Positions 41,306 through 63,475 of a stretch of DNA of 64,000 bases are shown one piece after another (position 1 is the stretch's first letter; every line of letters starts with the position of its first letter). This stretch comes from Candidatus Nomurabacteria bacterium. GTDB lineage: Bacteria > Patescibacteriota > Minisyncoccia > Phycocordibacterales > UBA918. Made by a program: the position numbers and the translations under genes. The notes under the pieces are model-generated. The model worked only from the letters and a program-made list of their open reading frames with translations. It did not search any database and had not been told where the DNA came from. The stretch spans positions 936,470-1,000,469 of the forward strand of contig JACKGH010000001.1 in NCBI GenBank assembly GCA_020632075.1. The letters run 5' to 3'.

Positions 41306-41312
41306 TAAAAGA

Positions 41313-42194: not shown

Positions 42195-42222
42195 ATTATA
42201 GCACAAAAGTGAGTAAAATCAA
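42195..42222 (-). promoter_or_regulatory. promoter TTGATT-16-TATAAT (minus strand) for P3
   Basis: The minus strand reads ttgattttactcacttttgtgctataat, then an AAGGAGG RBS. Confidence 0.5.
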
Positions 42223-42327
42223 TGATATGAAGATAGCAGAATAGATGACTGAAACATTGACTTTTTTACAAAATATGTAATAATACTTCAGGTTCTTTAA
42301 CGTTGCTCAAAAACCGTAGGAGGTAGC

Positions 42328-43278: not shown

Positions 43279-43408
43279 CCGGTAAGGAGTAACAACCTGG
43301 CACAAGGAAGTGCCAAGCCCGTCTAAATGACGGGTTTTTTCTTGTCTCAACTTTCAGTTTAAAACAAAAAATCGCTGGCAGACGTGTGTCTACCAGCGGG
43401 TGGATATG

Positions 43409-44095: not shown

Positions 44096-44281
44096 GGCGT
44101 TCTCCTTCTGGGTGGGTGGAACAGTGTGTACAGCAAATGCTGTAGTTACAACTGGGCAAAATAATACCTAAAAAACTACGTTTGTAAATATTTTGAAAAT
44201 AAAAAAACGACCCAAGCTCATATAGAGCAAGGGCCGTCGTGAGAAGTGTGAGGCTCACGCCCCACGTTGGACTCAGGATGT

Positions 44282-45271: not shown

Positions 45272-45585
45272 GGATATTCCTCCGTTTTGCGGTTTACAGA
45301 AAGTCTTTGCTATTTCACGAAATAGCTTGAGTCCAATAGATTGAAATGTACTAGAGAACCCAAAGCTGCGGAGAACACTATCATACTTTAAAAAAATGTC
45401 AACCCCTTAGGAGGGGTTTGTGGTTGGGGGGGTAACTGGGCGGCGGGCGAAGCCCGCCGCCCTCTCACGAAAAGAAAACGTCACAAAACATTGACAAATA
45501 CTAAATAAATGTTACTCTGTAAGGTAGGATTCTTTGTAAATTCACTATCTTTTTTACCATCGTCAAATTGACATAGGGGGTTGTT

Positions 45586-46899
45586 TTGGAAACTCAAAAC
45601 ACAAATGTAGTCGAGTCGGAGACAGAAAAGTCCTCCGAAGAGGCAGGCCTGCTGACTGAAGCCGTCGAAGAGACGAAGAGTGTCGGCTGGGTTGCGAAGG
45701 CGTACGTGGCATTGGTGGCAACTCTCACTGGTGTGGCAACGTACTATTTTGGTCCGGTCGGACTGATCACGCTGCTCCTCATGGGGCTGATGTCTCGCAT
45801 CGACGCTGGTGATCCGATGTCGATGGCTATCGATAAATGGGTGTACAAGCTCATCGTGAGCACGGTCACCCTACTGCTCGTCTCTGTCTATGGCTTCTGG
45901 TTCCTGCCGCTCTTGCTTCTGCTTGGCGGTCGGAAGCTGCTCGGGTGGGTTGCTACCCTCCAGGGGCAGTTCTGGAAACTCGTGTTGATCGCGATTGCGT
46001 ACAAACCGTTCCCGATAGGGCTAGCCAACAAGCTGGCCTCTAGGAAATCAGTTGAGGAGGTGTTGTTCGGTTCGCCGGCAGACGCCAAGTCATTCCTTCG
46101 CAGTGATGCATGGAATACAACGAAGGAAATGTACGACACGCTGATGCCAGAGCAACAGGGCGATCAGTCTACGTGGGCCAACGTGCTTTCGTATGTGATC
46201 GTTCTCGGTGTCATTGTGCCTGGTACTATCTGGGCAGCTGACTACCACTGGGATCATGTCCTGAAGTTCTACGATCTCCTGTCGGAGTTCGTTTCAGGCA
46301 CGCTCTCGGGTATCGGCGGTGCGGTCTTGGCGATCGGCAGTGGTCATATTCTCGACCTATTTGGCGAGACCTGGAACCTGCTCAAGGTGGTAGCGACAAC
46401 AATCAGTGCTTTTATCGGCCTGATTATCTTCGACTTCACGATCAACATCTTCTTGCACCTGATGATCCTCATTGGTGCGGAACGGCTTTACAGCAAAAGT
46501 GAGTCTTTCCGTAACTGGGTGCATCGGACGTTCAATCAAGTCAAGGAGCTCTTTAAGAAGAGTAAGGGTGGCATCGTGACGTTCCTCCGTCGCCAGCCTC
46601 GGCTGGTGCAAGGGGCTTTGATCGCTATGTCTGGTCCGGCAGTGCTGGTTGTTGCTATGGTCATCTGGCTGTGGCAGGTCGCAAGGCTCTTCGTCTTGAA
46701 GAAGCTGGCGATCGTGCTCATGAAACAGCCGGTCTTGAAGGCTCGCAAGAGCGAACGGCTTCGCAACTTCCTGTCAAAGCAGCGAGAAAATCTGCTGGCA
46801 CGGATCAAGGGCGAATCGTCCACCAAAGAAGATGTTGTAGAACTGTCACCTGACATGCCTGCACATAGAGAAGCGGAGAACAGCTCGGTCTCGAAGTAA
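45586..46899 (+). CDS. polytopic membrane protein
   Basis: A 437-aa protein with many TM helices and an unknown family. Confidence 0.45.
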   Translation: METQNTNVVESETEKSSEEAGLLTEAVEETKSVGWVAKAYVALVATLTGVATYYFGPVGLITLLLMGLMSRIDAGDPMSMAIDKWVYKLIVSTVTLLLVSVYGFWFLPLLLLLGGRKLLGWVATLQGQFWKLVLIAIAYKPFPIGLANKLASRKSVEEVLFGSPADAKSFLRSDAWNTTKEMYDTLMPEQQGDQSTWANVLSYVIVLGVIVPGTIWAADYHWDHVLKFYDLLSEFVSGTLSGIGGAVLAIGSGHILDLFGETWNLLKVVATTISAFIGLIIFDFTINIFLHLMILIGAERLYSKSESFRNWVHRTFNQVKELFKKSKGGIVTFLRRQPRLVQGALIAMSGPAVLVVAMVIWLWQVARLFVLKKLAIVLMKQPVLKARKSERLRNFLSKQRENLLARIKGESSTKEDVVELSPDMPAHREAENSSVSK

Positions 46900-47046
46900 C
46901 ACTCAACGTAAACGAGAGAGAAAGTATTGTGAAGAAGCAGCCCGCGGTGGGGAACACCGCGGGCTTTTTGTTTTTGTATGAAAAATAGAAAGTGGCCAAG
47001 AGCGTTGCTCTTGGCCACTGAAGGTGCTGGTGAGGCGAAGCTGTGT

Positions 47047-47553
47047 TCAGCAGATCTTGTCGATCAGCTTCGATGCAGTCTCTTTGATGCTTTGGAAGGT
47101 GTGCTTGATCTTGTCGATCAAGATCTGACGCGCTTCTTCGCGGGACAGGAACTTGTCCTTGTCTGTCACGATGTCATGGAACGGCTGCTGTGCCGCGATG
47201 AGTGCAGCACGTTGTTCATCGGTGACTTTGCCGAGTGCGACCATCGCGTCTGCGAAGTTGTCTTTGCTACGGTTCTCCCAGATGTTGATTGTCTTCACAG
47301 GCGCGAGTACTGCCAGAATGGCAAGGCCGAAAATTTTGACAGAGCCGTAGAACATTGGCCAGAACGATTTGCTCAAGAGCAGCAGAAAGAAGGCCAGTAA
47401 GCCTTTCAGGCCAAACGCGAAAATCAGAAGTGCCACGAATGCCGCAGTTCCAGCCAGAATGACCTGACACTTGGTGAGGCCGTAGTACAGCTTCTTCTCG
47501 ACGACAGTTGCTTCGACGGCAGAAGTAGTGTCCTGAGTGGTCTCGTCGACCAT
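47047..47553 (-). CDS. small membrane protein
   Basis: 168 aa with two TM helices. Confidence 0.4.
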   Translation of the reverse strand: MVDETTQDTTSAVEATVVEKKLYYGLTKCQVILAGTAAFVALLIFAFGLKGLLAFFLLLLSKSFWPMFYGSVKIFGLAILAVLAPVKTINIWENRSKDNFADAMVALGKVTDEQRAALIAAQQPFHDIVTDKDKFLSREEARQILIDKIKHTFQSIKETASKLIDKIC

Positions 47554-47662
47554 GCTTCACCTCCTCGGTGATGGTTGTTTGAAAGAATCCTGTGTAAATA
47601 ATAACATAAATAACACTTTTGTCAAAGATTTATGTAAGAGTTACACCGCAATTATTTCAATT

Positions 47663-47694
47663 AAAAAGCTCCCAGCCGTGTGGCTGAGAGCTTT
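47663..47694 (-). terminator. intrinsic terminator for 47715..48390
   Basis: The minus strand reads aaagctctcagccacacggctgggagcttttt. Confidence 0.5.
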
Positions 47695-47714
47695 GGTTGC
47701 TTGAACCGCGAGGG

Positions 47715-48390
47715 TCAGAAAATCGGTGTGCTGATGCTCATTCCGACGACCCAGTGCGAATCCTCACGCTCGCGCATCGTGTACGTAGTCTCAAGGAATG
47801 TCAGCGTGGTGTCGCCGAGCGCGATGCTCGGTGCCAGGGAGAGTTCTCCGAACCAGACCTCCTCTTCGTACGTGGTGTCGTACCCGGCACGAATGCTGGG
47901 TGTCAGAGTCACGGTATCGAGCGAAAAGTCCTTGCTGACCCCACCGTGGAAGATGAAGCCGTTGCTGGCGCTGTCGTCGATGATCTTCCAGTACTCGACA
48001 CCGACGAAGCCGGACATGTCCATGAAGTCATGATCGATCCGCGCTGCAGCGACGATCGCATCGCCGGTCGTGTTGTTCATGTCCGGGATGTTGAACCAGC
48101 TGACCGACAGGTCGAGCGAGGTTCCTTCGTCGATCTCGATGATCTTCCCGACGGTACCGTCGATCTCCTCGAAGTCGATGACGTCGTTGAGAGCGAACCA
48201 GCCGTTGAGATAGAAGCCGCTGTCGTGTTCGACGTATGCGTTGGCTTCTCCGAGCGGGTTGTCACGCACCTCGTAGCCGTTGTAGACGTACTTGCTCTTC
48301 CCACCAAGGGAAAGCTCTCCCGACAAATCGGCCAGGGAGGTGAGCGGTGCGAGGATGAGAATTGCAGCTGCAATGATGATCTTGTTCAAG
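47715..48390 (-). CDS. signal-peptide protein with alternating beta-strand pattern and C-terminal Phe (MipA/OmpV-like outer-membrane beta-barrel candidate); TTG start
   Basis: A TTG start at 48388-48390 gives MNKIIIAAAILILAPLTSLA. The protein has alternating hydrophobic residues and ends ...SISTPIF. Confidence 0.4.
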
Positions 48391-48527
48391 AGCGTAGCAC
48401 TCCAGTAGATTTGGGCGAAGTGCCGTTGATTACTATATAACATATTTACAAAAATCAAGTATTTGGCATACTGATACTTTACAAAACATACTTTATGTAG
48501 TTTGATCTTACCTAGATTTTACGGTAT

Positions 48528-49655
48528 TTGCTGAAGGAGGCAATCTTGAAAGAATCACTACCTACTGTGGACAATCAAGTATTGGAAGCGGTGCAAGTTG
48601 TGAAGGAGACGTTCGCGTTTGATTTTTGGGGCACTGATGGCTCCAAGATACTGATCTGCTTTCTGCTCACACTCTTCCTGTTTATCTTGTCTGAGCCGGT
48701 GCGCGCATACCTGCGCAAACGAAACGGTGACGAGGGCAAGACGATCCGCTTGATGCAGGGGAAGGCTGGCTGGGTGTCGCTCGGGATCATCTTGGTAACA
48801 TCGTACGCTGCTGCGTACTACCTCAAGAATGCGATCGATGTGATCGAGATCCCCACCTATCTACTCGGCATCATTGTCTTGGTGCGGTGGATCAACGGTA
48901 TGATCCGTGGTCCGCTGCTCAAGGCAGCTAAGTTGATCTGGGATACGCAAACGAATGATCACTTGCGAAAGGTCGGCATGCTCGCCACGTATGCGGTGAT
49001 ATCGTTTGGGGTGTATTTGGCACTCAGTGTGCTTAGCTACAACATCCAGGATCTGGTCGATCTTGGTCTGCCTGACTGGGTAACAGCGACGGCATCGGCA
49101 CTGGTATTCTTGCCGTTCTTGCAAGCGTTGGTGCAAAGTCTCGCGCTCTCCAATGACCGCAAGATGGAAGTGGGTGAGTGGGTGAAGATCGGCGACGTCG
49201 TCGCAAAGCTTAAGTGGAGCACGTTGCGTGGTTTAGTCCTTGAGGACGCGGAAGGAGTTGAGGTGGTCATACCAAACTCCATAGTGGAGAAAAGTGAATT
49301 CCGCAATCTGAGCAAGCGTAAGCGCTGGCGTGATACGTTCACGTTCTATGTCAGTGCTCAGGTGCCACCGGCCGCTCTCAGTGAACTTCGTAGCAGTGTG
49401 CTCACGCATATTGCTCAAGACTCGGAGTGCAAGCCGCAGCGGTGCTGGTTTCAGCAAGAATATCCTGGCGTGATCACGTTGCGGGTAATCGTCGATATCG
49501 AACCGCCAAGGAATGCGCCAGATCGTGGCGCTCTCCGAGACGAGAAGTACGACAAGGTATTTCAGCTGGTGGGTACGCTGATCGACTCGAGTGGTCAGGT
49601 GAACATGTTTCAACTTCAGCCACCGATCACTGGCGCACTGCCGCAATTGCCGTAA
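48528..49655 (+). CDS. MscS-family mechanosensitive channel
   Basis: VGEWVKIGDVVAKLKWSTLRGLVLEDAEGVEVVIPNSIV matches the MscS beta-domain signature (GDxVxIG...G.VE.I.....IR..DG.....PNS), with TM helices upstream. Confidence 0.7.
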   Translation: MLKEAILKESLPTVDNQVLEAVQVVKETFAFDFWGTDGSKILICFLLTLFLFILSEPVRAYLRKRNGDEGKTIRLMQGKAGWVSLGIILVTSYAAAYYLKNAIDVIEIPTYLLGIIVLVRWINGMIRGPLLKAAKLIWDTQTNDHLRKVGMLATYAVISFGVYLALSVLSYNIQDLVDLGLPDWVTATASALVFLPFLQALVQSLALSNDRKMEVGEWVKIGDVVAKLKWSTLRGLVLEDAEGVEVVIPNSIVEKSEFRNLSKRKRWRDTFTFYVSAQVPPAALSELRSSVLTHIAQDSECKPQRCWFQQEYPGVITLRVIVDIEPPRNAPDRGALRDEKYDKVFQLVGTLIDSSGQVNMFQLQPPITGALPQLP

Positions 49656-49812
49656 GTTCGTTTGTCGACTGTTCGACGAAGCCCCGACCACATGGTCGGG
49701 GCTTTTATATTGACAAAATTGATTTTTATAGTAATTTTTCTGCAGCGTTTGTCGCTATTTAAGACAAAAAGTACACCTGTTCATAGACATCACTGTGTAA
49801 GGAGTGTGAAAT

Positions 49813-51027
49813 ATGCGAACAGATTCAAACCCAGCCAACACGGCAATTTCGCTGACGGTGGTAGCGGTAATCTTTCTATCGATCAGTCTGAAGATCTTCG
49901 CGCCGTATCTGACCCCGGTGGTCGTTGCGGCTACGATGGGTATTCTGACCTGGGGAGCGTTCACGCGGTTGCGTGACCTGCTTGCCAGATCGCGCTGGCT
50001 GAAACCGTATTCGCCTGCTGCCGCAGCCTTCATTATCTGGCTGCTGACGACGAGTGTGGTAATCCTGCCAGGGTTCTTCCTTGGTAATTACGCACTCGTA
50101 AGCGGTATCGGTACGATTCGCGAGTTTATTGGTGACTTCCTGCTCGAGCATGAGTCGATCAATGCCTTCCTGCAAACACAGATCAGCAATCTGGTTTCAA
50201 TGCTGCCTGAAGAGGTGGTGCCAACGGTGCAAGAACGTCTCGGCGAGTTTGCTACCGTCGGTGCGCTGTTCAGTGGCAAGATGGGTGGAGCCGCCTTTGG
50301 TTTCATCTCTTCGGCTTCGGTCAGTGTGCTCGGTGCGGTGGGGACACTCGCGTTCTCGCTCTTGTTGTTTTTCTTCGTACACACCGATGGACCTGCATTC
50401 CTGAAGTGGATGAACGAGAAGCTGTATCTGCGCGAGCGTGGCGATGATATGTTCACCGAGGTGGCTGGTCTGATCAAGGGCATTGTCCTTGGATCAGTAC
50501 TGGTGCAGTTTATTCAAGCTTCGGCGTATAGTCTGACGCTGTTTGGCATCTCGCTGTTCGTGGACATTCCGAACCTCGGTGTGTGGATCGCAGTCATCAT
50601 GATCGCAGGCACCATTATTCCGGTGGTCGCCACTGCCGGAATGGCAATCGCGGTGGGAATGCTGTTCTACTCGGGCGCATTCATCCCCGGCATTGTCGGT
50701 GTGGTGGTCATTGCGATCTTCTCTACCGTCGACGGGATCATCCGTGGCTGGTTCGTGGGTTCACAGGTAAAGATCCCGGTTTCACTGATCGTCTTCTCGA
50801 CGATCTTTGGCCTCGGCTTGTTCGGATTCGTGGGTTTGATCCTTGGTCCGGCAGTTGTCGCCTTGGGTAAATCAGCAGCCGGTCATGCAACTGAAGCGTT
50901 TGCCGAGTGGCGGCAGTTCAACGCTGAACGTGAAGCAGAAAAAATGCAGATCAAAGTCGAACAGCTCGATGAGACACGCAAGCTGCGCGAAACTATGGAG
51001 CGGCTTCTGGAAGCACAAAAACAGTAA
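49813..51027 (+). CDS. AI-2E family transporter (UPF0118/PerM-like)
   Basis: 8 TM helices with a characteristic topology; C-terminal LGLFGFVGLILGPAVVALGKS. Confidence 0.65.
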   Translation: MRTDSNPANTAISLTVVAVIFLSISLKIFAPYLTPVVVAATMGILTWGAFTRLRDLLARSRWLKPYSPAAAAFIIWLLTTSVVILPGFFLGNYALVSGIGTIREFIGDFLLEHESINAFLQTQISNLVSMLPEEVVPTVQERLGEFATVGALFSGKMGGAAFGFISSASVSVLGAVGTLAFSLLLFFFVHTDGPAFLKWMNEKLYLRERGDDMFTEVAGLIKGIVLGSVLVQFIQASAYSLTLFGISLFVDIPNLGVWIAVIMIAGTIIPVVATAGMAIAVGMLFYSGAFIPGIVGVVVIAIFSTVDGIIRGWFVGSQVKIPVSLIVFSTIFGLGLFGFVGLILGPAVVALGKSAAGHATEAFAEWRQFNAEREAEKMQIKVEQLDETRKLRETMERLLEAQKQ

Positions 51028-51138
51028 CGATGTATTCGATCGCCTTGGGGTAACCCGAGGCGATTTTTTATTTATAAACATGTAAAAAGGGCGCATGCGG
51101 ATGCATGCGCCCTTGGTGGTTGGAGAAATGTGAACTGA

Positions 51139-52314
51139 TCAGGCTTGCCGTGCTACCGAAGACTTGGCCGGTTCGGCGGGCTGCAGCTGTACTTCCATGA
51201 TTGGCGGCTTGTGCTTGGTGATCAGAGACAGGCTGCCACGAAGGGCCGCCAGGATACGATCGCGATCGGCAGTGATTCGTCCGAGCTTTTCGGCATCGAT
51301 CCTTGCCTGATAGACGTACCAGTGTTCGTCGACTTGGATCGAGAGCAGATCTCCCTCGAGCGAGAACACGGTTACCGTTGGACGCTTGCGAAACGCACGA
51401 TCACCAAGTCGCACTTCACCATCGTTCTCTTTGTCGCCTGGGTGCGCGATCTGCAGAAGCAGATTCTTGGCGTCTGCCGGCAGCATGCGCGATGGAACAG
51501 TGGTGCGGTAGGTTGTCTTGTAGGCCTGTTCGCCAACACCCCCTTCCGTCGTGACCTGCTCCTGGTCTACGAGGCCGTGGGCCGCGTTGACCATACGGGG
51601 CAGCATGGCACCGAGCTGTGCTTCGAGCACGGTGGACAATTGCGCGATGGCAGCTTCGCCAAACGGAAGTTCGGTCGGGGCTGCTGCCGGTTGCGGAATG
51701 CGGGATACGATCGACTCGATGATCTGATCGACCGGGATCGGCTTGAAGCTGGCGTCTCCCTTGGGGAGCTTGAGCGCTGCGAGGGCTGCTTCGAGACGTT
51801 CGGTCATAAGCGCCTTCGTCTCTTCGTTCCAGTTCCTCATCTCGTCTTCCAGCTGTTTGTTCCGGTCGATTGCCTTCGACAGTTGGAAGTGAAGCGATTC
51901 GTTGGAGGCGTTCAACTTTTGACGCTCTTCAATGAGATTTGCGATTCGCTCATCTGAGTCTCGTTCATTCTTGTCCATCTCCTCAGCTTGCTGATAGAGT
52001 CGCTCGTTGAGCGCCTTTTCGATTCGGCTGCTCGACACTGCGACAGCGATCAGGCTAACCACTGAGATACACACGACCAGGCTACCGAGGATGATCGTTG
52101 TGCCAGGGTGAGCAGTGACCACTTCGGTCGCGCGCTCCCACTGGTTGCGGGCAGGTTGAGTCAGTTCGGCGGTTTTCGTCTGCGCCAAGTTGATGGTATC
52201 TTGAACCGAAAGGCCCTTTTGTTTGGCGTACAGACCACCGATCAGTGCCGTTGTGATCCCTACGACCAACAGAAGCATCAATGCAAAAAAGCTTGCGAGT
52301 AGGATTCTTTTCAC
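51139..52314 (-). CDS. membrane-anchored coiled-coil protein (GTG start)
   Basis: 391 aa; N-terminal TM helices, a coiled-coil region, and an AAGGAGA RBS. Confidence 0.45.
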   Translation of the reverse strand: MKRILLASFFALMLLLVVGITTALIGGLYAKQKGLSVQDTINLAQTKTAELTQPARNQWERATEVVTAHPGTTIILGSLVVCISVVSLIAVAVSSSRIEKALNERLYQQAEEMDKNERDSDERIANLIEERQKLNASNESLHFQLSKAIDRNKQLEDEMRNWNEETKALMTERLEAALAALKLPKGDASFKPIPVDQIIESIVSRIPQPAAAPTELPFGEAAIAQLSTVLEAQLGAMLPRMVNAAHGLVDQEQVTTEGGVGEQAYKTTYRTTVPSRMLPADAKNLLLQIAHPGDKENDGEVRLGDRAFRKRPTVTVFSLEGDLLSIQVDEHWYVYQARIDAEKLGRITADRDRILAALRGSLSLITKHKPPIMEVQLQPAEPAKSSVARQA

Positions 52315-52624: not shown

Positions 52625-52810
52625 ATGGCTAAAAAGTCAATGATCATCAAGGCGCAACGAGCGCCTAAGTTCAAGTCACGTGTCGTACGACGCTGTACAC
52701 TTTGTGGACGTCCACACGGCTACCTTCGTGACTTCGGCATGTGTCGTATTTGCTTCCGTGAACAGGCACACGAAGGACATATACCAGGCGTAAGGAAATC
52801 ATCATGGTAG
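52625..52810 (+). CDS. rpsN: 30S ribosomal protein S14, zinc-binding type Z
   Basis: 61 aa; [23 protein letters not shown] has four Cys. Confidence 0.9.
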
Positions 52811-53199
52811 GCGATACTATTGGCGATCTCATCATTCGCCTGAAGAACGCCGGTGCAGTGAATAAGGATACTGTTTCAGCTCCGTATTCAAAGCTCCGTT
52901 TAGCAGTTCTCACAAAGCTTGCAGATGCTGGCTACATTGAGTCAGTAACTGAAAAGGGCAAGCAGGTACAAGAAAAAACCCTCGAAGTGACACTTCGCTA
53001 CGAGAATGGTTCACCACGCATCAGCGGCGTGAAGCGTATCTCAAAGCCAGGTCGACGTCTCTACACGAAGGTGACGGATCTTCATCCGGTTAAGTTTGGA
53101 AAGGGGCACATGATCCTCTCAACTCCAGCAGGTATCCTCACCAATGAGGAAGCCAAGGAGAAGAAGGTGGGTGGTGAGCAGCTTTTCATTATTTGGTAA
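52804..53199 (+). CDS. rpsH: 30S ribosomal protein S8
   Basis: [16 protein letters not shown]...[30 protein letters not shown]. Confidence 0.95.
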
Positions 53200-55254: not shown

Positions 55255-56532
55255 ATGCAAACATTCCTTCACAAACTCAAAGTAATCTTCACTGAACCAG
55301 CTATCCGTAACCGTGTACTCTTTGTGCTTGGTGCGTTGGTAGTCTTCCGTGCACTTGCTTCGATCCCGATCCCGGGCATCAATCAGGCAGTGCTCCAAGA
55401 GTTTTTTAACAACAACCAATTCTTTGGTCTGTTGAACATCTTTTCAGGTGGTGGACTCACTAACCTGTCGATCGTGATGCTTGGTGTTGGTCCGTTTATT
55501 ACGGCATCGATCATCATGCAGCTTTTGACGGTAATGTCGCCAAAGCTCAAGAGCCTCTACACTGAAGAAGGAGAGGCGGGGCGTGCACGCTTTACACAGT
55601 ACAGCCGTATGCTCACTTTGCCACTTGCGATCTTGCAAGGCTTCGGTTTCCTTACTCTTTTGCAGAGTCAGGGAGTGATCACAGACCTGACTCAGTTCCA
55701 GATGGCAACAAACATCATACTGATCGTAGCTGGTTCAATGCTCCTCATGTGGATCGGTGAGTTGGTAACTGAGTACGGTGTTGGTAATGGTGTGTCCATC
55801 ATTATCTTCGCTGGTATCGTGGCAACTCTGCCATCGACAGCGAGTCAACTCTTATTCGGATATCAGGCTACAGAGCTGCCGTTCTATGTTGGCTTTGGTG
55901 TTGTCGCTCTTGCGATCATCTACGCTGTCGTGGTCATGACTGAAGCAGAGCGACCAGTGCCGATCACCTATGCGAAGCAGAGTCGTGGGGGAGCGACCTA
56001 TGGAAAGAGTCAGTCATACCTGCCAATGCGTCTCAATCAGGCTGGTGTGATTCCGATCATTTTCGCCCTCTCGATCATTCTCTTCCCGCAGATGGTGCTC
56101 AATATCTTGTCAGCGATAATGACTGGTGAGCCATGGGTAGAGACTGCAACGCTGATGGTGAACAACTTTATGGCTAATCAGTGGGCATACGGAGGCGTCT
56201 ACTTTGTGCTCGTGTTCCTCTTCACCTTCTTCTACACTGCAGTCACCTTTGACCCAGATTCTGTGGCAAAGAACTTGCAGCGAAGCGGTGGATTCATTCC
56301 TGGTATTCGTCCAGGCGGACACACAGCAGAATACCTTGGTAATCTCGTTACCCGACTTACCTTGGTGGGTGCGCTCTTTCTTGGTGCGATCGCGGTACTC
56401 CCAGTGGGTATGCAGATCGCTACCGGTAAGCCACAGCTCGCGATCGGTGGTACTGCGGTACTCATTGTGGTATCGGTGGTGCTTGACCTGATCCGTCGAC
56501 TCGACGCACAGGTATCGATGCGGGAGTACTAA
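55255..56532 (+). CDS. secY: preprotein translocase subunit SecY
   Basis: 425 aa and 10 TM helices; LGVGPFITASIIMQLL. Confidence 0.95.
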   Translation: MQTFLHKLKVIFTEPAIRNRVLFVLGALVVFRALASIPIPGINQAVLQEFFNNNQFFGLLNIFSGGGLTNLSIVMLGVGPFITASIIMQLLTVMSPKLKSLYTEEGEAGRARFTQYSRMLTLPLAILQGFGFLTLLQSQGVITDLTQFQMATNIILIVAGSMLLMWIGELVTEYGVGNGVSIIIFAGIVATLPSTASQLLFGYQATELPFYVGFGVVALAIIYAVVVMTEAERPVPITYAKQSRGGATYGKSQSYLPMRLNQAGVIPIIFALSIILFPQMVLNILSAIMTGEPWVETATLMVNNFMANQWAYGGVYFVLVFLFTFFYTAVTFDPDSVAKNLQRSGGFIPGIRPGGHTAEYLGNLVTRLTLVGALFLGAIAVLPVGMQIATGKPQLAIGGTAVLIVVSVVLDLIRRLDAQVSMREY

Positions 56533-56670: not shown

Positions 56671-58431
56671 ATGTTTTCATTTATTCTTTTGATCGCGCTG
56701 GTGGTCGTTTGGATCAAATTCGACCGACGCATCGAGCGCCTCGAAATGCTCTTGCGCCAGCGTGGTAATGCTCCCACTGAGCAGGTGCCAGTACCGCGTC
56801 CGATGCCGACGGCAGAAACTGCATTTACTCGCCGCCTTTCAGAAGAGGAGATCAGTGAATATGGCCCAACGATGTATGAGCCAAGTGGTCCTTCTGCGAT
56901 CAGCCGTTTTATTGACTGGGTCAAGAAAGACTTCATGGTGAAGTTGGGGGCATTTCTCCTACTCCTTGCGTTCGGCTGGTTTGTGAGTTACGCGATCATG
57001 GAAGAGTGGATCGGTCCAGCAGGGCAGATCGCACTTGGTTTGCTGGCCGGAGTATTCTTTCTTGGTCTGGGTGTGTGGCGCATCGAGTCATACCGACACC
57101 AGGGAGGGATCTTCACGGTGCTTGGCGCTTCGATCGTACTCTTTACTTTGTTTGCAGCTCGTGAGATCTATGACATGTTCACGCCAGCGTCGGCACTCTT
57201 TGTGATGTTCATGGCAGTCGTGTTTGTTGCGTTTGTGAGTGTGCGGTATCAGAGTGAGAAGTTGGCACACGCTGGCCTGCTACTGGGTAGTGCAGCACCA
57301 CTCTTTACTGGTGTGCTTGCTGACGCGCCGACACATTTCATGTACTTACTCATCGTGGCCCTTGGTAGCTTGTGGGTGGTCTGGAATACGGGTTGGACAC
57401 GACTTATTCTTGTATCGCTCGTGGTCACGTACTTCTACAGTGTTGCATTTATGATCGATGGATTCCGAGCCGATCGCGACGTTGTCCTGCTATTCTCATT
57501 TATCTTTGTCAGTATGTACTTTGCTGCCAACATGGTCAGCTTGGTTCGTCGACATGTCGAAGGAGTGAAACATATGCTCACTCACACCCTTGTCGCGCTC
57601 GGTACGGCCATCTTCCTCTTTACCTGGATCGAGGTGGCAGTGGATGCTGAGTGGAAGAGTATTCTGTATGTTGCTTGGGCAATGATCTTTGCGGTCGGTA
57701 CGTACATTGTGTATTCGTTCACTGCCAACAAACCAGCTTTTTACCTCTATGGTGCGACAGCAGCAGCTCTCATTGGGGTAGCGACCGCGGCTGAGCTCGA
57801 TGGGCCAGTCCTGACGCTCGCGTACCTCTTCGAGATCTGCGTGCTTCTTCTGGCTGCTGGACGACTCGGTCTTCGGGCTCGGACCCTGTCTCGTATGAGT
57901 CTCTTGCTGACGGTGCCAGTGCTCTTATCGCTTGAGAGCTTTGGTTCATCAGCGTGGCGACAGGGTGTTTTTCATGAAGATTTTGTAGTGCTTGGCCTCA
58001 CGATGTTTGTGCTTGGTACTATCGGATTATTGCTCCATGCCAAGAGTGCTGAAGCCGAAGACGAAGTTGCTTTGATCACTGCACAAGGTCACTTGGCCGT
58101 GTCTGGGCTCTACGCCACAGCACTCGTTTGGTTGATATTGCATGCTGCTGTTGCCTCTGATGATCTGGCAACTATGCTGTCGCTCATTATCTACACCGTG
58201 GTGGGTATTGGACTGTTCGTGGCAGGTACCGCACGATCGATTGATTGGCAGCGATTGGTGGGGAGTATCCTGATCGGCTTTGTGGTGTTGCGGTTGTTGT
58301 TTGTTGAGGTGTGGGATATGAATCTTGAAGGACGTATCATCACCTTCTTGATCATCGGTGTGCTGCTGATCTCGACTGCATTCTTACATAAGAATCGGAA
58401 GCAGACAGATGACGTAATTGTGAGCGAGTAA
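56671..58431 (+). CDS. large polytopic membrane protein (DUF2339-like)
   Basis: 586 aa: an N-terminal TM helix, a short soluble segment, and then about 16 TM helices. Confidence 0.45.
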   Translation: MFSFILLIALVVVWIKFDRRIERLEMLLRQRGNAPTEQVPVPRPMPTAETAFTRRLSEEEISEYGPTMYEPSGPSAISRFIDWVKKDFMVKLGAFLLLLAFGWFVSYAIMEEWIGPAGQIALGLLAGVFFLGLGVWRIESYRHQGGIFTVLGASIVLFTLFAAREIYDMFTPASALFVMFMAVVFVAFVSVRYQSEKLAHAGLLLGSAAPLFTGVLADAPTHFMYLLIVALGSLWVVWNTGWTRLILVSLVVTYFYSVAFMIDGFRADRDVVLLFSFIFVSMYFAANMVSLVRRHVEGVKHMLTHTLVALGTAIFLFTWIEVAVDAEWKSILYVAWAMIFAVGTYIVYSFTANKPAFYLYGATAAALIGVATAAELDGPVLTLAYLFEICVLLLAAGRLGLRARTLSRMSLLLTVPVLLSLESFGSSAWRQGVFHEDFVVLGLTMFVLGTIGLLLHAKSAEAEDEVALITAQGHLAVSGLYATALVWLILHAAVASDDLATMLSLIIYTVVGIGLFVAGTARSIDWQRLVGSILIGFVVLRLLFVEVWDMNLEGRIITFLIIGVLLISTAFLHKNRKQTDDVIVSE

Positions 58432-58433
58432 GT

Positions 58434-59645
58434 ATGATCACTATGTTTCAGAAAAATATTGTCATCACAGGATCACTCCTGTTTGTCGTACTTGGTCTTG
58501 GACTTTGTACCGCAGAAGCGCGGACACCACAGATTGCAGAGATGGAGGAAGCACCCGAAACCGCCTTTATGAAAATGATCCCGGTGCCAGCTGTTGATGT
58601 GGTAGTGCCGACTGTCGTCGAAGTGCCGATCGGCGAGCGGGTCTGGGATGATGAGACTTTCTTAGTCAAAGAGCGAGCAACCGGGCGATATATTGGTTCA
58701 TACTTGTCGTCGAAAACAGCAGTTGGTCTCACGCCAGTGTCAGTCAGTAGTGTGCCAAATGTAACTTCAGTGAACCGGCTAAATGATGGCAAGTTGGATA
58801 CCTTTACTGACTTTGATCTGCCAGCCGAAGGGGTGGGACAGGTGTCACTTACACTTAGTGCAAACAGCCCGATCACGTCATCACAGTTACGATTACGACT
58901 GGCACAGTATGTAGCTCTACCACTTACGGTGCAGGTGCAATACCAACGTCCTGGTGAGGATACCCTGCAGACGGCAGTTGCAACCACACGTATGACTGGT
59001 ACGACCGTGACCTTTCCCGAAGTAACTGCAACTCGATTTGTCGTTACCTTTACCTACGGTCAGCCACTGCGCATTACTGAACTATCGTTCGATCAGAAGA
59101 ATGCAGCTGTTACAGAAGAACAACGACTACGCTTCCTGCTGCAGCCGGGGGAGGACTATGATATTTACTACGATGCCGATCGCTCAGTACGAGTATCAAC
59201 GAGTGAGGTTGGTAACTTGTACAACGATAAGGAGGTGCTCTTGGTGTATGGCGGCTCACCTCGGGCTAATCAGCTGTATGTACCAGCTGACAGTGATGGT
59301 GATGGGGTGCGTGATACATTTGATAACTGTGTACAGATGTCGAATGAAGATCAGGTTGATATCGATGGTAATGGCCGCGGAGATGTGTGTGATGATTGGG
59401 ACCGAGATGGTCGTCTGAACAGTGCAGATAACTGCGTGAATGAGCCAAACCGAGATCAGCGAGATGAAGATCATGATGGTATCGGAGATGTGTGTGATGA
59501 GGAAGAGAGTCGCTTTACCGAAGCAAATCCGTGGGTGCCGTGGGTCGGTATCGGATTTGCAGGGTTAGTGCTGTTGCTACTCTTCACGTTGGTTGCTAAG
59601 CGGCCGGCTATACAAGCTGGTGAGGAAAAGAGAGAGGGAGAATAA
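58434..59645 (+). CDS. exported protein with thrombospondin type-3 (DxDxDG Ca-binding) repeats and a C-terminal TM anchor
   Basis: A signal peptide, then DSDGDGVRDTFDNCVQMSNEDQVDIDGNGRGDVCDDWDRDGRLNSADNCVNEPNRDQRDEDHDGIGDVCDEEE, and a C-terminal helix (GIGFAGLVLLLLFTLVA). Confidence 0.6.
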   Translation: MITMFQKNIVITGSLLFVVLGLGLCTAEARTPQIAEMEEAPETAFMKMIPVPAVDVVVPTVVEVPIGERVWDDETFLVKERATGRYIGSYLSSKTAVGLTPVSVSSVPNVTSVNRLNDGKLDTFTDFDLPAEGVGQVSLTLSANSPITSSQLRLRLAQYVALPLTVQVQYQRPGEDTLQTAVATTRMTGTTVTFPEVTATRFVVTFTYGQPLRITELSFDQKNAAVTEEQRLRFLLQPGEDYDIYYDADRSVRVSTSEVGNLYNDKEVLLVYGGSPRANQLYVPADSDGDGVRDTFDNCVQMSNEDQVDIDGNGRGDVCDDWDRDGRLNSADNCVNEPNRDQRDEDHDGIGDVCDEEESRFTEANPWVPWVGIGFAGLVLLLLFTLVAKRPAIQAGEEKREGE

Positions 59646-59653
59646 GTGGAACT

Positions 59654-59690
59654 AAAACTGGCCGGGCCCCGAAGGGGCCCGGCCAGTTTT
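59654..59690 (+). terminator. intrinsic terminator
   Basis: aaaactggccgggcccc-gaa-ggggcccggccagtttt. Confidence 0.7.
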
Positions 59691-59694
59691 AGTC

Positions 59695-60252
59695 ATGGAC
59701 AAACCACCTTATTTGTGGTTTTCTATCTACGGAAATAGTAGTTTCAGTGTGGAGAGTACCGCTGTGTACAAAATTATAATCACTGCAAAACCAGCCGGTC
59801 ACGCCCTCTTGTATGAGCGTCTTGGCCGGTCTGGTCGTCGGAAGCGAGTGCGCGCGTATGAGGCGATCGTAAGTATGCCGGATGGCACACAACACTCGTT
59901 CATGTTCACGCGTGATGTGTCCGATATAGTCTTTGGTGGTTTGCGGCAGCATTTCGGAGTAGGAGGTGAATGTCCGCCGAATCGAATTGACCTTCCATAC
60001 ACTGGCGTGCTGCATCGATCAGCGAACATTCCGTTCGCGATCAAGTTGTTTGATCAGCCAGATCAGACATTGCTTGGTGCTGGTGTGGTGGTGCGTAGGA
60101 ATCTGTTGATCCATCATGGTCCTGCTCGGAGCGAGGGATGTTTCACGATCGCTGGTGGCAAGAGGCACTTCAAACGGTTCAGGAGGCTACTTGAGCCCAT
60201 ACTGCACCGAGGTGTTCATATCGAAGTCGTTGTAGAACCAAGAGACAAGTAA
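59695..60252 (+). CDS. candidate L,D-transpeptidase-fold protein (YkuD/Tlde1-like His...Ser-x-Gly-Cys), no signal peptide
   Basis: NLLIHHGPARSEGCFTIAGG resembles the catalytic His / S-x-G-C core of L,D-transpeptidase-like domains. The spacing is shorter than in canonical YkuD, so the call is tentative. Confidence 0.35.
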   Translation: MDKPPYLWFSIYGNSSFSVESTAVYKIIITAKPAGHALLYERLGRSGRRKRVRAYEAIVSMPDGTQHSFMFTRDVSDIVFGGLRQHFGVGGECPPNRIDLPYTGVLHRSANIPFAIKLFDQPDQTLLGAGVVVRRNLLIHHGPARSEGCFTIAGGKRHFKRFRRLLEPILHRGVHIEVVVEPRDK

Positions 60253-60281
60253 AAAGCCGGCCCATATGGAGCCGGCCCATT

Positions 60282-60914
60282 TTAATATTGATTCTTTAAA
60301 GAATATCCGAGTGGTACCTCGTGTCGTCGCGGTTCCCACACTTCTGCATCAAGCCATTCCTTATAGGCATCAAAGATAGCGATCGCTACCGACTGGACAT
60401 TTTGACGTGAAGTATCGAGCACGAAGTCAAAGTGATTGGTGTCGTACGGATCGACACCATAGAGTCGTTTAAAACGATTTTGTTCGGTGAGCATTCGTTC
60501 TCGTACTTGTCGTGATACGGTGCCGAGAGAGGTGCTGCTTGTACCGACCGCCGAGCGGCTGGCGTTGGTCACGGCGTCTTTGAAGATGCGCGCGGTGGCG
60601 AGTTCGATATCGAGGTCGAGGTACACTTTGAATGATTCAGGGATCCAGTAGAAGCCAAGACGTGAGTCCACGATGATATCGTCCTTTTCGCGAAGTTTGC
60701 GAAGGGACTCGTCGACCTGATGGTCCATTTCATGGTTCTCAACTGCGCGCTTATTGTACTCCTCAAGAGTCATTTTTTTCTTGGTGAGGATCTGTCGAAC
60801 GAAGTCACCGGAAGAGTGTCGTGTGTAGCCAAGTAGTTCTGCCACACGGTCGGCAGTAGAGGACTTACCGCTACCAGGCTTGCCAGAGATCGTGATGATG
60901 TGTTTCTTTTCCAT
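60282..60914 (-). CDS. cytidylate kinase-like NMP kinase (archaeal-type cmk / AAA-kinase)
   Basis: The start is taken at the internal ATG (MEKKHIITISGKPGSGKSSTADRVAELLGY...SGDFVR). It has a P-loop and an NMP-binding region. Confidence 0.55.
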   Translation of the reverse strand: MEKKHIITISGKPGSGKSSTADRVAELLGYTRHSSGDFVRQILTKKKMTLEEYNKRAVENHEMDHQVDESLRKLREKDDIIVDSRLGFYWIPESFKVYLDLDIELATARIFKDAVTNASRSAVGTSSTSLGTVSRQVRERMLTEQNRFKRLYGVDPYDTNHFDFVLDTSRQNVQSVAIAIFDAYKEWLDAEVWEPRRHEVPLGYSLKNQY

Positions 60915-61049
60915 GCAGAGTATAAGCATACCATGAACGAAACCTGATCATACAACTATTGACAGATTATAGAAATGCGTGTTTACTATTTTCAGTGGCC
61001 AGTCGGCCCATCTGTACACTCACTACTTTGATGATCTTGGAGGTATATC

Positions 61050-61346
61050 ATGGCTCTGGCCAAGAAACTGATCGTTGCTCTGTTCGCAGCTTCGCTGCTC
61101 GGCCTCGGTGGCTGCGCCACTGCGGAAAAAGGCTGGGACAAGACTAAGGCTGGTTTTAACAGCGTCAAGTCTGGTATCAGCAAAACCTTCTCTGGTTCTG
61201 GTTCCACGTCAGGAATCAAGACGCCGTGGAGTGAAGCGAAGAAAGGTATCGTCTGGCCCTGGGACGCACTCCGCGACACCAAGTCGCAGGATGCCTACCG
61301 TCGAGGACTGACACCTGCCGAAGCGGCAGCAGAAATGGGACGATGA
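61050..61346 (+). CDS. small lipoprotein
   Basis: A lipobox (LLGLGGC) follows a signal peptide; the protein is 98 aa. Confidence 0.5.
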   Translation: MALAKKLIVALFAASLLGLGGCATAEKGWDKTKAGFNSVKSGISKTFSGSGSTSGIKTPWSEAKKGIVWPWDALRDTKSQDAYRRGLTPAEAAAEMGR

Positions 61347-61460
61347 GTCCAATGATGCACGCGCTGTGGTTTTACACCACAGCGCGTTCCATGTTTAGAG
61401 TAAAATAACCAATAAAATAAATTGCATTCACTCGCAAAAGTTGGTACTCTCCCTACATCT

Positions 61461-62033
61461 ATGGAACATAATACGAAGTATCTGAGTGTGGTCTTGATGG
61501 GAAAGATCGCGTCGGGTAAGGGGACACAGGCCTCTGAAATTGCGCACGAATTTGGTGGTGTCGTGTACTCAAACGGGAACAAGTTGCGCGAGGTCATCCA
61601 ACACCCAACACCGTTTGGCCGCAAGATGAAAGATATGTACGAGGAAGGCTATCTTATGCCAGAGTGGGTAGCTTCGTATTGGATGACACATGCGCTCGTA
61701 TCTCAGTATGAGAACGAACGGGTGATCTTTGAAGCAGTGGCGCGCAAGCCAAACGAAGCAGAGCTCTTCCATGAGATCCATGAGTGGGTAGAGCGACCAT
61801 ATATTGTATTCAACCTAGATGTGCCTGATGATGTTGTGCGAGAACGAAGCTTGAGTCGTGCGCGTGACGTGGTGGATTCCGCCGAAAAGATCGAGAAGCG
61901 ACTTGATGAATACCGCACGTACACCACGAAGTCGATCGAGTTCTTCCGTGAACAAGGCACCTTGATCGACATTGATGGAACACTATCTCCGGAAGAAGTG
62001 AAGCAACACATTTTTAATCATTTGCAGCAGTAG
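61461..62033 (+). CDS. divergent adenylate-kinase-like NMP kinase paralog (lacks the DGFPR motif)
   Basis: A P-loop (LMGKIASGKGTQ), but the NMP-bind/LID segment reads VIFEAVARKP instead of the conserved LIDGFPRT. The start is taken at the ATG at 61461. Confidence 0.5.
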   Translation: MEHNTKYLSVVLMGKIASGKGTQASEIAHEFGGVVYSNGNKLREVIQHPTPFGRKMKDMYEEGYLMPEWVASYWMTHALVSQYENERVIFEAVARKPNEAELFHEIHEWVERPYIVFNLDVPDDVVRERSLSRARDVVDSAEKIEKRLDEYRTYTTKSIEFFREQGTLIDIDGTLSPEEVKQHIFNHLQQ

Positions 62034-62042
62034 CGATAATAT

Positions 62043-62639
62043 ATGCAACCAACAACCGTTATTTTTATTGGTCCACAGGGAAGTGGAAAGGGGACTCAGA
62101 TCGAGCTTTTGTATAAAGTGATGACCGAGAAAGACCCGGCTCGTCGAGTGGTAGATATCCAAACCGGTCGCCGGTTTCGTGCACTAGCTGCAAAGCATGA
62201 GACCTTTGCTGAACGAAAGATCAATGCGACGCTCGACTCTGGAGTGCTTCAGCCAGACTTTTTAACGCACGTACTTTGGGGACAGGCGATGCTCGATCAG
62301 TTGGACGCAAAGAGTCACTTGCTTATTGATGGTTTTCCACGCACGGTGCCACAAGCAGAAGTGCTTGATGACGCGCTTGCGTTTTTTGAGCGTGATATGC
62401 TTCATGTGATCAATCTCGACACGCCGGAAGAAGTCGTACGGAAGCGCATGTACGAACGGGCGCGAGCAGATGACACTGATGAATCGATCGAAGAGCGCCT
62501 GCGGTGGTATCGTGAAGAGACGTTGCCGGTGCTTGACTACTACCGGGTGCGGCCAGACACTGAAGTGCATGATCTCGAAGGGACTGACACAATTGAAGGT
62601 GTGCACGCACAGATCTTGACTGCGCTCAAGTTAACCTAA
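62043..62639 (+). CDS. adk: adenylate kinase
   Basis: IFIGPQGSGKGTQ P-loop and a canonical LLIDGFPRTVPQAEVLD. Confidence 0.85.
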   Translation: MQPTTVIFIGPQGSGKGTQIELLYKVMTEKDPARRVVDIQTGRRFRALAAKHETFAERKINATLDSGVLQPDFLTHVLWGQAMLDQLDAKSHLLIDGFPRTVPQAEVLDDALAFFERDMLHVINLDTPEEVVRKRMYERARADDTDESIEERLRWYREETLPVLDYYRVRPDTEVHDLEGTDTIEGVHAQILTALKLT

Positions 62640-62644
62640 AACAT

Positions 62645-63418
62645 ATGATTACCAAGAAAACTCCAGAAGAGATCGAGACCCTTAAGGAAGCGGGATCTAT
62701 TCTTGCTAAGATCCTCAAGGGTGTGGCTGCCGAGATCAAACCAGGTGTAACTACCTTGTCGCTAGATGATCGTGCGATGGATTTGGCTGAAGAGTACGGG
62801 GTTGAGCCGGTACTCCTCGGCTATCATCCCGGATTTGCGGATCGTCCGTATCCAGCAGCGATTTGTGTGTCGGTGAACAACTGTGTCCAGCATGGTATTC
62901 CGTCTGAAGATTTCGTGCTCGAAGAGGGCGATGTGGTGAACATCGACATGTCGATCGCACATAAGGACATGATCGTTGACTCAGGACTCACTGTCGGAGT
63001 GGGGGAGATCAGTGATGAGGCGCGCAAACTACTAGCTGTCACTGAGGAGGCGCGAGCGATCGGTATCAAGGAAGCAAAGCCGGGTAATCACATTGGTGAT
63101 ATCAGTGCCGCGATCCAGAAGCATGTGGAGTCGCGTGGTTTCTCGGTCGTGCAGGTGCTCTGTGGTCATGGGGTTGGGTATGCCGTGCATGAAGATCCGA
63201 CGATCCCAAACTACGGCAAGGCTGGAACTGGTCCGCTTATCGAAGTGGGGCATGTGTATGCGATCGAACCAATTGTAAATATCGGCAAGCCCGATGTGGT
63301 ATTTGATGATGAAGGTGATGGCTACAGTGTATATACGACTGACGGTAGCTGGAGCGCACACTTTGAACATACGGTAGCGATCACTGAGGATGGTCCGCTC
63401 ATTTTGACTAAGGAATAG
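62645..63418 (+). CDS. map: type I methionine aminopeptidase
   Basis: VNNCVQHGIPS...VNIDMSIAHKDMIVDSG...LCGHGVGYAVHEDP. Confidence 0.9.
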   Translation: MITKKTPEEIETLKEAGSILAKILKGVAAEIKPGVTTLSLDDRAMDLAEEYGVEPVLLGYHPGFADRPYPAAICVSVNNCVQHGIPSEDFVLEEGDVVNIDMSIAHKDMIVDSGLTVGVGEISDEARKLLAVTEEARAIGIKEAKPGNHIGDISAAIQKHVESRGFSVVQVLCGHGVGYAVHEDPTIPNYGKAGTGPLIEVGHVYAIEPIVNIGKPDVVFDDEGDGYSVYTTDGSWSAHFEHTVAITEDGPLILTKE

Positions 63419-63454
63419 AAAAAGCGGCGGGCCCCAAAGGGGCCCGCCGCTTTT
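63417..63454 (+). terminator. intrinsic terminator after map
   Basis: aaaaagcggcgggcccc-aaa-ggggcccgccgcttttt. Confidence 0.7.
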
Positions 63455-63475
63455 TCACTCAACACCAAACTCACC

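Follow-up and report, generated by a model that had tools for sequence, protein, structure and literature searches.

A conserved adenylate kinase-family gene lacking DGFPR beside a canonical adk and an archaeal-type cytidylate kinase-like gene at the end of a patescibacterial ribosomal-protein operon

We analyzed a 64,000-nucleotide stretch of DNA from Candidatus Nomurabacteria bacterium (GenBank assembly GCA_020632075.1, contig JACKGH010000001.1, positions 936,470 to 1,000,469 of the forward strand; hereafter the window), which carries two adjacent genes of the adenylate kinase (AK) family at the end of its spc ribosomal-protein operon. The first gene, here called AKp (61461-62033, plus strand), encodes a divergent short-LID AK-family nucleoside monophosphate (NMP) kinase of 190 residues, and the second, adk (62043-62639, plus strand), encodes an adenylate kinase of 198 residues. 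A third gene on the minus strand, cmkL, is related to cytidylate kinases. AKp lacks the DGFPR motif of adenylate kinases and is conserved across a clade of Patescibacteria, and the residues that it keeps and changes suggest a working kinase whose handling of the acceptor nucleotide may have shifted. A preliminary description of the window, made from the sequence alone, had drawn attention to these three open reading frames (ORFs); all of them are present where it placed them.

Results

AKp keeps the phosphate-handling residues of adenylate kinases without the DGFPR motif

The AKp protein matched the Pfam AK family PF00406 (ADK) over profile positions 1-150 of 151, with 85.0 bits (E 7.3e-24) against a gathering threshold of 26.8. 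This agrees with the preliminary description of an AK-family paralogue without DGFPR, in place of which the window protein has E-A-V-A-R-K. Its ATG start at 61461 coincides with the start of ~120 homologues, with TTG 61422 as an upstream alternative, and an NCBI entry with the same sequence (100% identity) bears the name 'nucleoside monophosphate kinase [Candidatus Kaiserbacteria bacterium]'. AKp scored below every NCBIfam adk cutoff (the best was NF002700, with 97.2 bits versus 262; TIGR01351 gave 93.0 versus 168) and is at most ~31% identical to any solved AK.

To place individual residues, 47 AKp orthologues and 44 neighboring adk proteins were aligned in E. coli numbering with E. coli and Mycobacterium tuberculosis Adk, human AK1, and the Dictyostelium UMP/CMP kinase. 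The numbering of these reference sequences reproduces the published catalytic positions. G7, G12, K13, G14, T15, R36, R119, R123, R156, D159, and R167 were invariant in all 47 AKp orthologues, which thus retain the P-loop (GKIASGKGT in the window), the NMP-site arginine, the LID and core arginines, and D159. Within the P-loop, G10 was replaced by A, C, or S in every orthologue, and the PG of bacterial Adk was changed to IA.

The changes in AKp cluster around the DGFPR/Q92 region, where FEAVARKPNEAE replaces DGFPRTxxQAE; at the position of Aquifex Adk VIFDGFPRTVKQAE, AKp carries VIFEAVARKPNEAE. D84 and Q92 were both replaced by E in 47 of 47 orthologues, F86 by V, P87 by A, and T89 by an invariant K, while G85 was A or G across the family and A in the window. 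R88 was K in 45 of 47 orthologues and R in the window protein. The replacement of the motif in the preliminary description therefore holds for DGFPR as a whole and fails for its arginine, which the window copy still has. Further substitutions were T31 to N, M53 to Y, K57 to Y, and V59 to M or I, and aromatic residues abound in the helix of the NMP domain (PEWxASYWMTHAL); YSNGNKLR and PEWVASYWMTHAL are additional landmarks. In the LID (RARDVVD), D158 is V (V, L, or A in the family), and a one-residue insert gives R-D-V-V-D, with the D one position earlier. The possibility, also raised in the preliminary description, that this paralogue retains all AK catalytic residues is about half borne out: the lysine and the arginines are kept, while D84E, G85A, F86V, P87A, Q92E, D158V, and, in the family, R88K are not.

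An AlphaFold2 model of AKp was confident, with a predicted local distance difference test score (pLDDT) of 94 and a predicted template-modeling score (pTM) of 0.89, and had the three-domain AK fold of CORE, NMP-bind, and short LID. The top 50 Foldseek matches of this model in the PDB were all AKs or UMP/CMP kinases, with template-modeling (TM) scores of up to 0.90. The best matches were ligand-bound adenylate kinases, onto which the model superposed with TM scores of 0.86-0.90 and root-mean-square deviations (rmsd) of 1.9-2.0 Å: TM was 0.86 for Aquifex Adk (rmsd 1.9 Å), 0.88/0.90 for M. tuberculosis Adk bound to two ADP, and 0.86 for human AK1 bound to Ap5A. The model itself was in a closed shape.

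AKp resembles the bacterial short-LID Adk enzymes of Aquifex aeolicus (2RGX/4JLO) and M. tuberculosis (2CDN) in its fold (TM 0.86-0.90), length class, lack of zinc and of a long LID insert, P-loop pattern (GxxxxGKGT), and shared R36, R119, R123, R156, R167, and D159, and its gene lies between secY and map like that of bacterial Adk. It differs from them by EAVA(K/R)K in place of DGFPR, by Q92E, T31N, and D158V, by the one-residue LID insert, and by its P-loop IA and aromatic NMP helix. Eukaryotic UMP/CMP kinases (Dictyostelium 2UKD and yeast Ura6 1UKY) provide a precedent for a change of acceptor in the AK fold through positions 31 and 92, which are A and N in those enzymes, and the AKp model aligned with them at a TM of ~0.85. 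However, UMP/CMP kinases keep DGFPR and the DD pair, unlike AKp. AKp was no closer to them by distance than to bacterial Adk, and its score against TIGR01359 (75.6 bits) fell far below the cutoff of 207.6.

AKp is conserved at the same locus across related Patescibacteria

One genome per GTDB species was scanned for the AKp signature peptides MGKI[AC]SGK and ASYWMTHA, which were found in 44 genomes, all of them Patescibacteria (labeled Kaiserbacteria, Nomurabacteria, Paceibacteria, and similar). In 44 species genomes, 46 related loci were then compared with the proteins of the window by tblastn. The arrangement secY–cmkL(-)–AKp(+)–adk(+)–map(+) was present in 45 of the 46, and also in L050 and L051. 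cmkL was absent from one locus and two stop short of adk. secY stands directly before cmkL in most of these loci, and ndk lies downstream of map wherever the sequence reaches far enough.

Across 33 genomes, the AKp proteins had a mean pairwise identity of 72%; the corresponding values were 70% (adk), 71% (map), 68% (cmkL), 74% (ndk), and 80% (secY). As AKp is conserved to the same level as adk and map, it is under the same constraint as its housekeeping neighbors. A pseudo-kinase, one of two options in the preliminary description, is unlikely given this level of conservation, the confident closed AK fold, and the invariance of K13, R36, R119, R123, R156, R167, and D159 in all 47 orthologues.

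The two AK genes belong to separate lineages

The preliminary description had treated AKp and adk as tandem paralogs, which would suggest a local duplication. The two proteins are only 28.5% identical. Neighbor-joining trees of 101 sequences with Kimura distances recovered a monophyletic AKp clade in 99 of 100 bootstraps and a monophyletic adk type in all 100, and no bootstrap paired the two as exclusive sisters. A recent tandem duplication is ruled out by this combination of low identity and tree position. AKp instead had a sister of another kind in 98 of the 100 bootstraps, a protein of the group that we refer to as W-type.

Close relatives of AKp are few, with 25 matches at E <= 1e-30 in an exhaustive search of 1.84 billion cluster representatives. 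The same search returned many W-type proteins, which are ~190 residues long, 30-42% identical to AKp, and carry a 'P-x-W-[FLV]-A-x-Y' helix together with E at the Q92 position. Their counterparts of DGFPR form a gradation that includes IDGFPRR, FDGAARK, IIDGAVR, FEGVARK, FSGSGRL, and SEGGAKK. In five other patescibacterial lineages (L047, L048, L049, L052, and L057), a W-type protein is the only AK between secY and map, and these sole AKs carry DGAVR, SGSGR, or EGVAR, with E for Q92. The loss of DGFPR is therefore not peculiar to a second copy, and sole AKs of other Patescibacteria are degenerate in this motif too.

A second AK was present in the AKp clade (including P0121 and P0303, 54-60% identical), in tandem with P0134, and, in a distant lineage, at the locus of P0149 (L056). 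These second AKs all belonged to the lineage of the window adk, to which they are 38-65% identical, and which is marked by 'G-x-Q-GSGKGTQ', an N-terminal insert, and [DE]GFPR. Because a W-type protein is the sole AK elsewhere, the second AKs are all of the adk lineage, and the bootstraps group AKp with the W-type, the divergent AKp probably derives from the AK already resident in Patescibacteria, and adk, the gene of canonical appearance, would be the additional one. K88 was found only where a second AK is nearby, in the AKp clade and in P0149, whereas all five sole-AK lineages have R88. Four of these five also keep RxDD in the LID.

In the P0149 locus (L056:311-2420), the order is AK1[K88]–NUDIX–NUDIX–AK2. 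The NUDIX genes between two AKs hint at a functional link in which nucleotide-pyrophosphate hydrolysis would lead to re-phosphorylation of the resulting NMPs.

The neighboring adk has a full set of catalytic residues

The adk protein matched PF00406 with 98.6 bits (E 4.8e-28) and carries all of the catalytic residues (K13, T31, R36, D84-G-F-P-R88, Q92, R119, R123, R156, D158, D159, and R167), as expected for the canonical adk that the preliminary description had recognized. These residues were invariant or nearly so in 44 orthologues, with position 92 being Q in 36 and E in 8. Its motifs are GPQGSGKGTQ, the N-terminal insert TEKDPARR, LLIDGFPRT, Q92, and RADD. The protein scored below the NCBIfam adk cutoffs (129 versus 187 and 116.5 versus 168), and its sequence identifies it as a short-LID enzyme of a second patescibacterial AK lineage.

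cmkL resembles archaeal-type cytidylate kinases

cmkL (60282-60914, minus strand) encodes a Cytidylate_kin2/archaeal-type (d)CMP-kinase-like protein of 210 residues, or 215 residues from an alternative start at 60929. The true start is probably the ATG at 60914, since most homologues have 210 residues and independent assemblies call a 210-residue gene. Its best 120 homologues are 72-84% identical, mostly 210 residues long, and named 'cytidylate kinase family protein', 'AAA family ATPase', or 'CMP/dCMP kinase'.

The protein matched PF13189 (Cytidylate_kin2) over all 176 profile positions (1-176) with 51.1 bits, above the gathering threshold of 28. Against the archaeal model TIGR02173 ('cyt_kin_arch'), it scored 96.3-96.4 bits, which is ~6 bits under the curated equivalog cutoff of 102.1, with near full-length coverage (2-163 of the 169 model positions). 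All 20 cmkL family members that were tested matched this model, with a best E-value of 6.7e-30. The bacterial cmk models TIGR00017 (33.9 bits, cutoff 135.55) and PF02224 (28.9 bits) were matched through the P-loop alone. These scores support, at the family level, the earlier view that cmkL is of the archaeal, short type and not an ordinary bacterial cmk. Like the archaeal-type (d)CMP kinases of TIGR02173/PF13189, it is without the long NMP-domain insert of bacterial Cmk; unlike the TIGR02173 model, it contains an additional stretch rich in Ser/Thr within the LID region, as well as a C-terminal tail.

This tail, encoded by 60282-60350, consists of ~25 residues (…W..EVWEP….VPLGYSLKNQY) that are invariant in, and specific to, this clade. 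Neither the 169-position archaeal model nor the 187-190-residue orthologues from other Patescibacteria have this tail, which may serve in an interaction or in regulation. Those shorter orthologues, 39-43% identical to cmkL, adjoin secY in further lineages; the L048 gene is on the minus strand, and the L057 gene is on the same strand as its neighbors. When cmkL was compared with the PDB by sequence and by profile, only P-loop matches were returned, to AK1 and one Cmk. An AlphaFold model was poor (pLDDT 59, from a 20-sequence alignment of 73-84% identity).

In archaea, the tail of the spc operon reads secY-adk-(membrane protein)-cmk. The preliminary description had seen the archaeal order secY-adk-cmk in the window, but the actual order is secY-(inserts)-cmkL(-)-AKp-adk-map, and relatives likewise have secY-cmkL-AK, so that the linkage is shared with archaea and the order is not. 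cmkL is also not convergent with the AK genes, as had been stated, but head-to-head (divergent) with them. This shared linkage brings secY, an AK, and a cmk of archaeal type together where the ribosomal-protein cluster ends, and it recurs in several patescibacterial lineages. cmkL lies on the opposite strand in this clade and on the same strand in L057, which reads secY-cmkL(+)-AK-map. The AKs of the locus are of the bacterial PF00406 type, unlike the archaeal trimeric AdkA, and are followed by map as in bacteria.

Layout of the locus and other features of the window

At the end of the spc operon, the window has the layout secY–three inserted genes–cmkL(-)–small ORF–AKp–adk–map. The same arrangement was found in two independent Logan assemblies and is therefore not an assembly artefact. 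secY (55255-56532, plus strand) is the upstream anchor of the conserved cluster and is 69-84% identical to secY of the 46 related loci; PF00344 (SecY) occupies the equivalent position in L001 and L002. Between secY and cmkL lies a 3.7-kb insertion (56671-60252) that is particular to this genome lineage and absent from that position in L001 and L002. Its three genes, all on the plus strand, encode a DUF2339 membrane protein (56671-58431; Pfam), a 403-residue thrombospondin-type-3-repeat protein with calcium-binding repeats and a C-terminal membrane anchor (58434-59645; Pfam), and a 185-residue protein (59695-60252) that has no family match and, by tblastn, no homologue in the 46 related loci.

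Just past the cmkL stop, on the same minus strand, a terminator-like hairpin at 60254-60278 has a 10-bp stem with 7 GC pairs, followed by a T-run. On the 5' side of cmkL, a consensus scan found a sigma-70-like promoter match (60966-60995, minus strand; CTGAAA-18-TATAAT, 10/12), which is weak evidence because consensus matches in this region are no commoner than in shuffled sequence. The gap between cmkL and AKp is usually only ~40-180 bp in related loci, and here it holds a lipoprotein-like ORF of 98 residues (61050-61346, plus strand) with a signal peptide and the lipobox LGGC (…LLGLGGC). This ORF is called as a gene in independent assemblies too, had no Pfam or NCBIfam match and no tblastn match in the 46 related loci, and is specific to this genome and outside the conserved cluster.

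AKp, adk, and map are packed in an operon-like manner: adk begins 9 nt past the AKp stop, and map (62645-63418, plus strand), the last gene of the unit, begins 5 nt past the adk stop. The map product is a type I methionine aminopeptidase (TIGR00500, 259 bits, cutoff 171; PF00557, 147 bits). Directly 3' of map, the terminator scan found a GC-rich hairpin at 63418-63456 with 18 pairs, 13 of them GC, that is likely a bidirectional terminator closing the AKp-adk-map unit. After map, the window has a methyltransferase ORF of the S-adenosylmethionine type (from 63476) and not ndk.

The ndk gene of relatives (L001:10024-10629, with an equivalent gene in 39 related loci) encodes ~200 residues. A typical NDK has ~140-150 residues. 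The Pfam NDK domain matched the relatives' protein in two stretches, which suggests an insertion of ~45-50 residues within the domain.

Further upstream, the spc operon is interrupted by an insert of ~16 kb (36737-52314) between L5 (35932-36633) and S8 (52804-53199), which are ~0.5-1 kb apart in the relatives L001 and L002. Its GC content is 0.51-0.54, compared to 0.44-0.49 in the flanking ribosomal-protein genes. The insert opens with nine consecutive minus-strand ORFs without a credible Pfam match, three of which are paralogous membrane proteins of ~270 residues (39517-40326, 40428-41240, and 41337-42155), followed by an MscS-like channel and an AI-2E transporter. One ORF in the insert (44282-45271) matched nothing but phrog_6856, a family of unknown function. 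In the window, a gene for S14 was not seen between those for L5 and S8. Elsewhere, a 561-residue protein (20360-22045) combines a strong match to a pyrroloquinoline quinone (PQQ)/BamB-type beta-propeller with a weak N-terminal phosphoribosyltransferase-like match below the Pfam cutoff, an unusual pairing. An Rfam scan of the whole window, which spans the S10/spc region, at gathering thresholds gave no match, and known ribosomal-protein leader families were not detected.

Discussion

In E. coli Adk, T31 OG1 bonds adenine N7, G85 O and Q92 OE1 bond N6, and the strictly conserved R88 is crucial for placing the AMP phosphate (PMC3369945). D158 positions R156 and holds it in the closed state (PMC10778088). 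With respect to these roles, the AKp sequence suggests that the donor (ATP) side is intact, that the phosphate-acceptor loop and the LID latch have been rebuilt, and that the shell around the acceptor nucleotide has been remodeled. An intact donor site combined with a rebuilt acceptor loop argues for an active phosphotransferase with altered acceptor handling rather than a dead enzyme. From the sequence and the model, we predict with good confidence that AKp is an active, ATP-dependent NMP kinase; that its main acceptor or its kinetics differ from those of the neighboring adk is a prediction toward which we lean more cautiously.

N31 can donate and E92 can accept a hydrogen bond, so the reading of a 6-amino purine may be functionally kept. 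Because the residues that read adenine N6 and N7 are kept in the form of E92 and N31, the acceptor of AKp most plausibly retains an amino group on its base, as in (d)AMP or (d)CMP, and the sequence argues against GMP, UMP, and dTMP as preferred acceptors. We had considered a GMP kinase in which the E92 carboxylate reads guanine N1/N2, but downgraded this idea because Q92 OE1 faces adenine N6 and a carboxylate there should repel a 6-oxo group (PMC3369945).

We propose that an ancestral patescibacterial AK stood alone between secY and map, and that a second, canonical AK came to adjoin it in the ancestor of this clade. The canonical enzyme would then have taken over housekeeping AMP phosphorylation, leaving the resident copy, AKp, free to shift its acceptor preference or kinetics. 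Parcubacteria are without de novo nucleotide synthesis, and adk is present among them, while canonical cmk, gmk, and tmk were reported to be poorly represented, with relaxed specificity proposed as the cause (PMC4508563). In such an organism, the gene block could re-phosphorylate salvaged (d)NMPs to NDPs and NTPs through a division of labor, with the canonical adk serving AMP, cmkL serving (d)CMP, and AKp, which would have diverged after the canonical adk was in place, serving either another amino-base (d)NMP or a wider set of acceptors.

Several points weigh against this proposal. The closest solved or characterized relative of AKp is only ~31% identical, and R88K, D84E, and D158V all lie at the phosphoryl-transfer center, where they could cause a large loss of kinase activity. 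The AKp lineage is the sole and presumably AMP-phosphorylating AK elsewhere, and AKp could remain an adenylate kinase. Paceibacteria are reported to encode, in general, routes to GTP, CTP, and TTP, with only Microgenomatia lacking gmk (PMC9166423), so there may be no missing kinase for AKp to replace. The trees are neighbor-joining trees of very divergent sequences, compatible both with acquisition and with ancient duplication followed by loss. Only two lineages underlie the association of K88 with a second AK. A related rule, by which an RDxxD LID would imply a second AK, fitted the AKp clade, P0134, and P0149, but was dropped because it failed for P0126, which has RDTTD in the order secY-cmkL-AK-map without a second AK in its 2.9-kb contig.

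AKp might still be an ordinary housekeeping adenylate kinase whose motif changes are tolerated lineage drift, with the DGFPR-type neighbor as an accessory that uses another donor, is regulated differently, or is redundant. Such a role would suit a lineage that provides the sole AK at secY-AK-map in five lineages with DGFPR degenerate and E for Q92, as well as an enzyme whose N31 and E92 are able to read adenine N7 and N6, whose ATP-site and LID arginines are all kept, and which in the window itself retains R88. However, R88 is retained by those sole-AK relatives and RxDD by four of the five. In the AKp clade, 45 of 47 orthologues carry R88K, D158 has become V, and the P-loop has changed from PG to IA, and these changes co-occur with a canonical AK directly adjoining. 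Two enzymes with the same job, both held at ~70% identity across the clade, would also be unusual in genomes of ~1 Mb, and we consider this explanation rather unlikely. Catalytic impairment is another matter: AKp could be a pseudo-kinase, or a nucleotide-binding or ATPase protein kept for a regulatory or ribosome-related role, as its place within a ribosomal-protein operon and the loss of R88 in 45 of 47 orthologues, together with D84E, the loss of cis-Pro87, and D158V at the reaction center, might suggest. Yet that operon position is the normal place of adk, the other phosphate-handling residues and the P-loop lysine and threonine set are all invariant, and the predicted fold is closed and substrate-competent. 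Position 88 is moreover always K or R next to an invariant K89, so that positive charge is preserved, and impairment seems very improbable to us.

It is also conceivable that AKp replaces a missing canonical GMP, dTMP, or UMP kinase by non-orthologous displacement and so explains the 'missing' kinases of Parcubacteria. The scarcity of cmk, gmk, and tmk beside a present adk (PMC4508563), the remodeled acceptor-side residues, and the membership of AKp in a block with cmkL, adk, and ndk would all fit, as would the outcome of tblastn searches with E. coli Gmk, PyrH, and Tmk, which found no match in the window or the 46 loci, a search space of only ~0.6 Mb of local sequence. However, a hydrogen-bond acceptor at E92 facing purine position 6 should disfavor 6-oxo GMP and 4-oxo UMP and dTMP, and the reported routes to GTP, CTP, and TTP in Paceibacteria, with gmk wanting only in Microgenomatia (PMC9166423), make displacement less needed; we judge it improbable. 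A broader version of our preferred reading, an active AKp with shifted acceptor handling, goes further: the whole W-type lineage would have broad or altered specificity, the AKp branch (R88K, D158V, E92) of two-AK genomes would be dedicated to a non-AMP nucleotide and, with cmkL, explain the 'missing' parcubacterial NMP kinases, and the secY-cmk-AK linkage would reflect either a very old operon organization shared with archaea or inter-domain transfer into the operon. We regard this combination as speculative and, taken as a whole, unlikely.

The three genes are all members of known superfamilies and are already generically annotated in public records. The conserved two-AK system, the conserved AKp subfamily without the DGFPR arginine, and the repeated association of secY and AK with a cmk of archaeal type among Patescibacteria appear to be undescribed; our literature search on UMP, GMP, and NMP kinases of the Candidate Phyla Radiation (CPR)/Patescibacteria and on the archaeal secY-adk-cmk order yielded only PMC4508563 and PMC9166423. 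Annotations should not label the divergent copy a pseudogene, nor should they blindly give the name 'adk' to both genes.

CPR bacteria cannot make nucleotides and must re-phosphorylate salvaged (d)NMPs, and the enzymes responsible have been a question since canonical cmk, gmk, and tmk were found to be poorly represented (PMC4508563). Throughout the clade described here, four nucleotide kinases form a fixed block where the ribosomal-protein operon ends. Among them are an archaeal-type cmk-like gene that escapes the bacterial cmk models and an AK-family enzyme that is strongly conserved without the 'strictly conserved' DGFPR arginine. Should the acceptor specificity of AKp prove to be new, the enzyme would close a gap in metabolic reconstructions of CPR bacteria and would represent a natural experiment on how far an AK active site can be rebuilt, through R88K, D84E, and D158V.

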